From positions 5,766,001-5,830,000 of the forward strand of contig OX597838.1 in the NCBI GenBank assembly GCA_951406725.2: a stretch of 64,000 nt of DNA. Reading direction: 5' to 3'. Of the stretch, positions 16,346-47,766 are shown piece by piece. Under the pieces are notes generated by a model. That model searched no databases. It was not told the origin of the DNA and was given only the letters and a program-made list of their open reading frames with translations. The position numbers were made by a program, and so were the translations under genes. Source of the DNA: Octopus vulgaris. Lineage: Eukaryota. Numbering within the stretch: position 1 is the stretch's first letter; each line of letters begins with the position of its first letter.

Positions 16346-16767
16346 GGTGGCGAGCTGGCAGAAACGTTAGCACGCCGGGCGAAATGCTTAGTGGTATTTC
16401 GCTTGTCGTTACGTTGTGAGTTCAAATTCCGCCGAGGTCGACTTTGCCTTTCATCCTTTCGGGGGTCGATAAATTAAGTACCAGTTACGCACTGGGGTCG
16501 ATGTAATCGATTTAATACCTATGTCTGTCCTTGTTTGTCCCCTCTGTGTTTAGCCCCTTGTGGGTAATAAAGAAATAGAAATAGGTATTTCACTTCTCGT
16601 TACGTTGTGAGTTCAAATTCCGCCGAGGTTGACTTTGCCTTTCATCCTTTCGGGGTCGATAAATTAAGTACCAGTTACGCACTGGGGTCGATGTAATCGA
16701 CTTAATACCTATGTCTGTCCTTGTTTGTCCCCTCTATATTTAGCCCCTTATGGGTAATAAAGAAATA
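16346..16767 (+). mobile_element. tRNA-derived SINE family B with tandemly duplicated 3' part and 15-bp TSD
   Basis: Head ggtggcgagctggcagaaacg; B-box-like gagttcaaattcc; core gcctttcatcctttcggggtcgataaattaagtaccag (resembles, from memory, the Meta/MESC central SINE domain). ggtatttaaattata occurs at 16330-16344 and 16768-16782. Confidence 0.9.
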
Positions 16768-17663
16768 GGTATTTAAATTATATTTCACGGAGACCCGTAA
16801 ATTGGCTAAGATTTTAAATCGACACTGGGGCTACTTCGATGATAAATATTAACGTGAAAGCTGCAGGTGACTTCATTGTTTAGTTAAATGTATGACTACA
16901 AATTTCCTGGCCAAAGCAAACTGAGAATTCTTTCGATGTTGTTATGTTTTATAATAAATCGTAATGTTAATAAATATTTTTTCATATATCAGTCATTGGT
17001 TTTATCATTACATCGGGAAGCTATCGCGTAAAAACTTCGTGGTGGAATTGCAAATAGGTTCCTATGAAAATGCAAGAAAGATTTAGCAGGTTTAAGACCG
17101 CGATTTTCAAGATTTGCGTCTTTATGCAACAGTTCACAGAATAGATACACGAATTGATGGGTGTGTTTTGTAATGAAATATGTCAACACCTTATCACATT
17201 CTATATAGTGACATTCACTGGAATTTGCAAGCATCCAAACATAGAGGGAACAATATGTTGTAAAAAGAAGAAGCTAAATATTATCCAGATAAACATAAAT
17301 TTCAATAAAACGTTTCACTTAAATGTGCACATATATCAATGGAGGTAGCTAAATAGTGAAAGAGGGAGAGCAGGTTTTTGTGTGTGTGTGTATATGTTTT
17401 AGGTGTGTGTGCATTTGTGATAGATAAAGGGTGAGAGAGAGAGAGAGAGAGAGAGAAATAGAGACGAGAGAGAGAGAGAGAGAGAAATAGAGACGAGAGA
17501 TAGATAGATAGATTATTTGACCAGGTGTGGAATTTCAAATCAGAGTAAGTAGGCTATTCATGCATTTCAATACAAGAGTTAAAATACTGAAAAAAAGCTG
17601 TCCCAAACATTTTAAAACAATACGATTTTCGTGACAGGAACTTAAAACATAGAATCACACACA

Positions 17664-29040: not shown

Positions 29041-29110
<70 letters not shown>

Positions 29111-29114
29111 TCAA

Positions 29115-29817
<703 letters not shown>

Positions 29818-32274: not shown

Positions 32275-32328
<54 letters not shown>

Positions 32329-32331
<3 letters not shown>

Positions 32332-32560
32332 GATTTCAACAATATTACGCAATGGCCCTGATAGGCCATTCGACCCACTGGAAGGAGCAGCCAAACTCAA
32401 ACCGCCAAATAGTTGTAATTCTGAAACCAAAGGAGAAATAAAAAAATTTACCCTTATCATCTTCGGACCATGCATAGTTTCGAGACTTTGGTAAACCAAT
32501 TTAATTAAATCAACTTTGTTTCCATCTGGCCTGTCTCGTCAGCAAAGAAGCCAAGGAAAC
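32329..32560 (-). mobile_element. 5'-truncated diverged member of the 29115-29650 hammerhead element family
   Basis: Minus strand has agggtaaatttttt...tttctcct...cggtttgagtttggctg...agtgggtcgaatggcctatcagggccatt...tattgttga, collinear with 29530-29650, and runs into (TA)n. Confidence 0.8.
32460..32548 (-). ncRNA. Type I hammerhead ribozyme (GUC site)
   Basis: Minus strand: UCUUUG-CUGACGA-GAC...GUC(UC)-GAAA-C-UAUGCAUG-GUC-CGAAGA. Helix I has 6 bp; helix III is ACUA-UGCA-UGGU; there are 2 extra nt between helix II and GAAA. Confidence 0.8.
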
Positions 32561-47320: not shown

Positions 47321-47473
47321 ATTTACACTATTTACATTATTTACATTTTACGGATATTTGTACTCATCTTGATTGTTGTTAACACAACCTTTCGGCTGAT
47401 ATACCCACCAGTCTTCATCAGGTATCTTGGGGAAATTTCGGACCTGGGTTCTCATTTCTAAGGTGTTATCTGA

Positions 47474-47553
<80 letters not shown>

Positions 47554-47766
47554 CCAGGTTCGAAATTTCTCCAAGAGACCTGATGAAAACTGGAGGGTAA
47601 ATCTGCCGAAGGGTTGTGTTAACAATCAAGAAGAGGAGAAATATCGCTGAATGTAAATAATGTAAATAATGTACATAATTCCTCATCTCTTATGTTATAT
47701 GTGTTTGTAAGTCCTCGTGTTTTTGTTATGTATTTGTCTGAATATTTTTTATCATGCCTAATGCAC

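Follow-up and report, generated by a model that had tools for sequence, protein, structure and literature searches.

Does the hammerhead-like sequence at positions 32329-32560 (minus strand) represent a ribozyme under selection, and what kind of element carries it? The question arises in a 64-kb window of Octopus vulgaris DNA, the whole stretch analysed here, which sits in a 2.8-Gb genome rich in microsatellites. An earlier sequence-only reading had noticed that the locus is collinear with a second element on the plus strand and that both keep hammerhead pairing across diverged helices. It had proposed an old, diversified family with a selected ribozyme that cleaves as a dimer, as minimal type I hammerheads do.

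The two hammerhead loci of the window are homologous

Within the 64-kb window, a type I hammerhead descriptor matched only these two loci. Formal alignment showed them to be related rather than unrelated: the minus strand of 32329-32560 was collinear, end to end, with 29400-29655 (+), and the local alignment score of 150 lay far above that of 300 dinucleotide shuffles (mean 25.9, sd 4.6, max 44). By BLAST, the two matched at 77.5% over the 3' 129 nt. The collinearity first seen with 29410-29650 thus holds, and 32329-32560 (-) and its sister at 29106-29648 (+) are true homologues. The sister, first noted over a narrower stretch, spans about 29106-29648, and 32329-32560 corresponds to just the 3' half of a unit of ~468 bp.

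The sister belongs to a young subfamily, A1, and has (TA)n on both flanks. It is composed of a 12-nt inverted arm ending at the terminus designated E2 (29106-29117), a 43-nt 3' fragment starting at 29115, and a single full 493-bp unit (29156-29648). Its hammerhead core lies at 29428-29434 and 29503-29506 (+), with predicted cleavage at 29518/29519 (+). No stop-free frame of at least 120 aa was found over either element. The Rfam scan of the whole window listed 150 matches, which were miRNA models lying nearly all on microsatellites. A targeted scan with RF00163 (Hammerhead_1) gave 12.5 bits for the 32329-32560 copy against a cut-off of 34 and no match for the sister; the score stays below the gathering threshold, and the 45-position model has no room for the long helix II.

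Two further features of the window were observed. Positions 47367-47631 form an inverted repeat of ~110 bp around (TAT)n, each arm with a degenerate CUGAUGA...GAAA; this may be an ancient inverted insertion of Penelope type that carries a minimal hammerhead. At 16393-16768, a 190-bp repeat with a SINE-like look stands in two tandem copies.

Parts and private changes of the 32329-32560 copy

The copy is a lone, 5'-truncated member of subfamily B1 lying between microsatellites. Read on the minus strand, its ribozyme opens with the 5' strand of a helix I closing stem (CCUU, 32553-32556; partner 32452-32455), which is placed by the RNAalifold consensus and constrained folds and showed no both-side change. 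There follow GGC(U) in the helix I internal loop (32549-32552; putative 5' strand of a pseudoknot), the helix I 5' strand UCUUUG (32543-32548), the catalytic core CUGACGA (C3-A9; 32536-32542), the helix II 5' strand GACA (32532-32535), and GGCC in the helix II internal loop (32528-32531; putative 3' strand of the pseudoknot). The helix II extension (32486-32527), a 15-20-bp hairpin in intact subfamilies, is damaged by a 5-nt deletion and substitutions. The helix II 3' strand UCUC (32482-32485; UGUC in relatives) carries a private change at 32484 and is followed by the core GAAA (G12-A15.1; 32478-32481), by helix III (32467-32478), a 12-nt near-palindrome that is a perfect palindrome in relatives, and by the helix I 3' strand CGAAGA (32460-32465; CAAAGA in relatives). 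Hammerhead consensus places cleavage after GUC, which predicts a cut between 32466 and 32465. Further downstream, a conserved 3' hairpin (32351-32370) lies just inside terminus E1 and is a candidate recognition signal for a helper reverse transcriptase; its stem is conserved in sequence and does not covary. The (TA)n target microsatellite at the 3' end of the copy occupies 32277-32328.

Helix I pairing UCUUUG/CGAAGA with one U.G, the core CUGACGA/GAAA/UC, the near-palindromic helix III at both loci and the retained 3' hairpin are all as the sequence-only reading described them. Its helix II is not: GAC/GUC followed by an "extra UC" was set in the wrong register, since relatives show GACA/UGUC. 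A genome search with the copy, in which 40 of 1628 candidates were scored, gave at least 45 matches; the best of these apart from the copy itself was 92% identical, and the order in relatives is CUGACGA GACA ... UGUC GAAA CUAUGCAUAG UC CAAAGA. A G>C change at 32484 leaves a C.C mismatch in helix II of the copy, and the 22-mer containing it occurs once in the 2.8-Gb genome. Judged against the relatives, what was read as an "extra UC" stems from a G>C substitution private to the copy, with no bases inserted.

Against the B1 majority (21 sequences, the copy included), the copy carries 12 substitutions and the 5-nt deletion, and it nests in B1 on a long terminal branch. Three of the changes fall in helices, giving one broken pair and two wobbles; G at 32469 (helix III) and G at 32464 (helix I) are also specific to the copy relative to the subfamily majority. 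By inspection, the G>C change opens a slipped 6-bp pairing that covers core residues C7, G8, A9 and G12. The energy gap to the active fold was 19.1 kcal/mol in the copy. Of 12 other sequences, 10 had gaps of 2.3-4.7 kcal/mol, and the two exceptions, from subfamilies X and V1, had gaps of 6.8 and 9.8 kcal/mol. The fold of the ribozyme region, scored against shuffles, had a z of +0.31 in the copy, -0.6 in an intact B1 copy and -2.5 to -5.3 in subfamilies A, Z, Y and X. Because the copy begins ~240 nt into the 468-bp unit, it is 5'-truncated. The copy is decayed and most likely inactive.

A family of tandemly repeated units

Nine full units measured 468-493 bp, with a GC content of 0.35-0.37 and identities of 63-97%, a spread that fits the old, diversified family first proposed. 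Each unit carries one type I hammerhead, with the core CUGANGA / GAAA / UH present, and units stand head-to-tail in tandem arrays. The full monomer is strongly self-paired (z -5.3). The sister's subfamily is very young: among 42 matches listed (40 of 1667 candidates scored), full-length matches were 99-100% identical, and many lay in arrays with a period of 493. The exact 3' hairpin motif had 5067 matches genome-wide and its control none, a count in which near-palindromic sites may appear twice; exact motif matches numbered 2640 for the A-type helix III and 428 for other helix III types. No element-linked ORF was noticed beside the copies that were inspected. One of four contig sets included a 523-nt contig wrapping back by 493 nt, as would be expected equally of a circle, of a multimer or of tandem DNA, the RNA status of these contigs being a guess.

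Cores are not uniformly strong. Among recently amplified subfamilies, Y (L173) and Z (L095) have U4C, a described natural variant, and X (L153) and W (L204) have an A.A or A.C mismatch at 10.1-11.1. Young subfamilies tolerate weak cores, which, like the wider energy gaps of X and V1, counts against the explanation favoured below; X, W, Y and Z are natural tests of the level of ribozyme activity that the element needs.

In the family alignments, sense-strand A>G changes (32/398) exceeded T>C changes (22/565; uncorrected Fisher p 0.007), an excess that A-to-I editing of an RNA template could explain; G>T versus C>A was equally skewed, not significantly, and subfamily X had no A>G excess. The literature searched held no report of such elements in cephalopods, though supplements may list them, and the word "ribozyme" is absent from the main text, as available, of an octopus repeat annotation (PMC13282606).

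Covariation among subfamilies

Covariation was assessed over 19 subfamily representatives, picked by hand from copies with mostly recurring helix signatures, a choice that favours intact ones. The named structure was 92.5% paired, compared with 25-45% for slid controls, and its covariation score of 0.388 was reached by 0 of 500 shuffles. Pairing and both-side changes were 99.1% and 4 of 6 pairs in helix I, 94.7% and 4 of 4 in helix II, and 100% and 1 of 4, with three pair types, in helix III; the helix II extension was 89-97% paired. RNAalifold, unprompted, returned the same three hammerhead helices. The covariation that the sequence-only reading expected of a wider family alignment was thus found in all three helices, by a shuffle test and not R-scape, and from counts of related sequences and not of independent events. 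Two of the five covariation measures were no better than shuffles (81/500 and 466/500).

Within B1 the pattern was different. Single-copy departures in the helices of 21 B1 copies comprised 7 broken pairs, 2 wobbles and 0 compensatory changes, plus 4 changes in the core. Since departures within B1 break pairs while subfamilies covary, pairing is maintained between the multiplying lineages and lost in copies after insertion. The earlier argument from preserved structure to selection therefore survives in part: the comparison of representatives supports selection on the ribozyme at the level of lineages, and the argument finds no support in the 32329-32560 copy, where both helix II and the apical hairpin are disrupted by changes that no relative shares.

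Architecture of the hammerhead and a proposed pseudoknot

Helix I comprises 6 bp, or 8 in A, followed by an internal loop and a closing stem of 3-6 bp. In helix II, 4 bp (5-6 in A) lead through an internal loop into the 15-20-bp hairpin, and helix III has 4 bp and a 4-nt loop. This is not the "minimal" type I hammerhead first suggested, since helices I and II are of canonical size, a closing stem and a long helix II extension are present, and helix III has 4 bp. Minimal hammerheads of Penelope-like elements (PLEs), with helix III absent or of 1-2 bp and a short helix I, have a different build.

GG in the helix I loop and CC in the helix II loop were invariant in 19/19 representatives, with varying neighbours; the pair next to GG/CC was C-G in 16, U-A in 2 and U-G in 1. 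A hand count of the first 100 of 116 genomic matches to a GG/CC pattern that left those positions free gave GGC/GCC 39, GGU/ACC 57, GGU/GCC 4 and GGC/ACC 0, a match of C-to-U with G-to-A that may represent one evolutionary event. The two pairs flanking the proposed pseudoknot were unpaired in 10-11 of 19 representatives. From these patterns we lean, by a small measure, towards a GGY/RCC pseudoknot of 3-4 bp between the helix I loop and the helix II loop. RCC may instead pair with a downstream GGT, which leaves the matched upstream C>U change unexplained. A different candidate, TTTACC in helix II with a downstream GGGTAAA, was dropped: TTTRCC pairs within the helix II hairpin and GGG closes helix I. 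Pseudoknots between stems I and II are described for about 40% of hammerheads in the available text of PMC3088659.

Other repeats of the genome also combine a hammerhead with a helix II of 40-76 nt (L044, minus strand, ~711 on the reversed locus; L055, +2727; L120; L119; L098, +1873; L115; L221/L222/L225). Most of them have a palindromic 6-nt helix III, and the two that were inspected, L044 and L055, are likewise inverted insertions adjoining (TA)n. A long helix II seems to recur among the hammerheads of this genome. L220 (G000:C5:6546758-6546804, minus strand), a canonical type I hammerhead of short length, gave the best RF00163 match among the candidates scored (45.5 bits) and is not obviously tandem.

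The palindromic helix III

In relatives, helix III is a 12-nt palindrome that is kept through U-A, A-U and G-C swaps, and helix III with loop 3 was palindromic in 19/19 representatives. By hand count, 99 of the first 100 listed of 428 non-A sites were complementary at the variable pair 15.3/16.3. Among the first 100 of 2640 A-type sites, likewise counted by hand, the loop was UGCA in 68 and UAUA in 25, both self-complementary, and the non-palindromic UACA in 7, all from one amplified tandem array (L212). Calculated energies were -1.0 to +0.8 kcal/mol for the helix III hairpin and -13.6 to -18.7 for the self-duplex. The available text of PMC4209133 describes the logic of dimer cleavage for hammerheads with helices of 1-2 bp. 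On the energies calculated here, the balance tips modestly towards dimer cleavage being likely possible in this family too, which is not to say that it is required.

Insertion sites and 5' ends

The elements are head-to-tail arrays in (TA)n, often with an additional inverted 5'-truncated arm. Of 103 A-type 3' ends, overlapping loci being counted separately, 100 lay at two positions ~100 nt apart and 92 directly on a TA run; B-type 3' ends behaved alike (99/104, some being alignment breaks inside arrays). In the inverted insertions checked, one arm ends at each of the two positions, E1 and E2. Partial tandem, inverted 5'-truncated copy, one-sided extension and microsatellite target are thereby found together, as in Neptune-type elements. 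The cleavage site is ~135 nt inside the nearer terminus, and arrays reach at least 7 units. With both termini away from the cleavage site and arrays longer than a single unit, the template has to continue past that site; we infer that it is circular or multimeric.

Among 211 de-duplicated 5' ends of arms, 28 fell in the bin +1 to +30 past the cleavage site, compared with 10, 14 and 13 in neighbouring bins that were chosen after sight of the unit data (p ~0.001). Loci anchored at the 3' end gave, on their own, 10 versus 3, 4 and 4 (p 0.02). Most of the pile-up is at +5 to +28. Run-off at the cleaved end explains it; stalling of reverse transcriptase at structure, or microhomology in the T-rich tract, could do so as well. 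At L007/L018 (G000:C2:6211429-6211552), a B1 inverted insertion adjoins an A-type fragment that begins no more than ~2 nt from the predicted cleavage site, which indicates that subfamilies reuse the same TA tracts.

Autonomous Penelope-like elements in the same genome

Young autonomous elements with RT and GIY-YIG domains are present in the same genome, with intact frames of 781 and 775 aa and a Cys linker before the nuclease; their 3' ends abut (TA)n and use either of two positions separated by 30-40 nt. By inspection, small palindromic variants of the hammerhead, in which the core has U3-A8 or U4C, are present in some of them. At least two young Neptune-like families (781 and 775 aa), each with many copies of equal score, were observed along with a third whose frame is 574 aa (L144:939-3281, L230, L147:1582-3303), ending on (TA)n and with small hammerhead variants, of U3-A8 or U4C core, 100-200 nt from the 3' end.

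No homology between the units and the autonomous elements was detected in 40 GIY-YIG loci, save for an independent nested copy in one of them (L114), and alignment of three units with six autonomous 3' regions revealed no similarity. This search covered a small sample: 150 of 6136 GIY-YIG candidates scored, ten longer stretches and one protein search. The proposed link to PLEs is one of insertion anatomy, not of sequence homology to a helper.

Discussion

We consider it highly probable that this locus was dead on arrival: a copy of a non-autonomous Penelope-type retroelement, a non-LTR retrozyme, that inserted without its 5' part and has mutated since. Active members would be tandem arrays of a ~470-490-nt unit giving a read-through transcript, which the type I hammerhead would cut once per unit, probably with help from the short pseudoknot between helices I and II and from neighbouring units that pair through their palindromic helix III. 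A circular or multimeric form would be reverse-transcribed in trans by an RT/GIY-YIG protein, presumably of Neptune type, which would nick (TA)n and prime at two fixed sites ~100 nt apart. Such two-site priming would yield head-to-tail arrays with an inverted 5'-truncated arm.

The units could instead be detached pseudo-LTRs of an unsampled autonomous PLE, copied from uncleaved multimers, with a hammerhead that, like the minimal PLE hammerheads in published reports, cuts rarely or only when the host assists. Units that are 63-97% identical nevertheless keep all three helices strictly paired, which argues against this account, as do the excess of 5' ends right behind the cleavage site and the fact that no element-linked ORF was noticed beside the inspected copies. 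It gains from arrays longer than one unit, which need a template left uncut at some sites, from the core-weakening variants that persist in young subfamilies, and from the 150 of 6136 GIY-YIG candidates scored. The available texts also describe low in vitro activity of PLE hammerheads (PMC4209133) and cleavage in 1 of 9 Xenopus dimers (bioRxiv 10.64898/2026.07.22.740005). We regard it as improbable on balance.

It is very improbable that 32329-32560 is itself a variant hammerhead that works and is under selection, with two bases inserted ahead of GAAA. The core residues are indeed intact and the changes in helices I and III are compatible with wobble pairing, but the variant is unique in the genome and is a substitution, the copy sits on a long terminal branch inside B1 with the 5' half of its unit missing, and its energy gap to the active fold is 19 kcal/mol. 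If recombination at the DNA level had spread the family as a satellite or minisatellite, with the hammerhead as a relic, tandem arrays of near-identical units would be accounted for, and local amplification by unequal crossover is discussed in the available text of bioRxiv 10.64898/2026.07.22.740005. We give this account almost no credence: the insertions are scattered over many chromosomes, their 3' ends are fixed on (TA)n, 5' truncation varies and arms are inverted, all of which are signatures of retrotransposition, and compensatory changes need selection at the RNA level.

As a Penelope-type retrozyme, the family is a variant of known non-LTR retrozymes whose unusual features are the long helix II and the probable pseudoknot. 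It resembles the metazoan retrozymes of coral, mussel and axolotl, as described in the available text of Cervera and de la Pena 2020 (PMC7229834), in that the tandem repeats are non-coding and poor in GC (35-37% here), each unit bears a single type I hammerhead, the monomer is strongly self-paired and autonomous PLEs co-occur. Units are longer here, 468-493 nt compared with ~170-400 nt in that account and 51-972 bp in bioRxiv 10.64898/2026.07.22.740005, as far as its available text goes. A helix II of 55-75 nt and the proposed pseudoknot take the place of the loop 1-loop 2 contact outlined in PMC7229834, and strict (TA)n targeting, inverted arms and two fixed ends do not figure in the description available there. 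The available part of bioRxiv 10.64898/2026.07.22.740005 treats retrozymes as non-autonomous PLEs, and monomers, dimers and multimers dispersed in a genome bearing EN+ PLEs are shared with our family; the link to PLEs is drawn there from pLTR homology and here from insertion anatomy, no homologous autonomous 3' region having been found.

Neptune-clade PLEs, in the available text of Craig et al. 2021 (PMC8557442), likewise show partial tandems, an inverted 5'-truncated copy, an extension at one end, microsatellite targets and a hammerhead near the 3' end. Here, however, there is no ORF, the extension is ~100 nt and not 30-40 bp, and the hammerhead is full-sized. The minimal PLE hammerheads of Cervera and de la Pena 2014 (PMC4209133, available text) share the type I topology and a palindromic 15.2-16.2/loop 3 that permits a dimeric fold, whereas our family has a helix III of 4 bp with a 4-nt loop in place of 0-2 bp, a helix I of 6-8 bp with a closing stem and, in most subfamilies, no extra nucleotide at 9/10.1. 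Compared with the pseudoknot-stabilised hammerheads outlined by Perreault et al. 2011 (PMC3088659, available text), the proposed contact has just 3-4 bp, joins two internal loops and leaves a long hairpin beyond the helix II loop.

A further-reaching version, which we put forward tentatively and do not think probable, is that the family is a still-active retrozyme clade whose type I hammerhead has a build of its own, in which the loop of a canonical-length helix II, with a long inserted hairpin, docks on the helix I internal loop via a GGY/RCC pseudoknot, helix III dimerisation gates cleavage, and circular RNA is copied by a Neptune protein at two sites 100 nt apart, without homology to the 3' end of the helper. 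If this is true, the genome would be a fossil record of in vivo cleavage, with 5' ends piled behind the cut, and the family a compact substrate for testing tandem and inverted insertion by Penelope-type elements. The family is useful in being large, partly very young (copies 99% identical) and rich in diverged subfamilies. It is a natural source of covariation for a hammerhead whose helix II is long, and its insertion anatomy ties a retrozyme to Penelope-type integration. With a non-coding substrate of 490 nt whose ends are defined, both the role of the hammerhead in the PLE cycle and the origin of tandem and inverted insertions would become testable.
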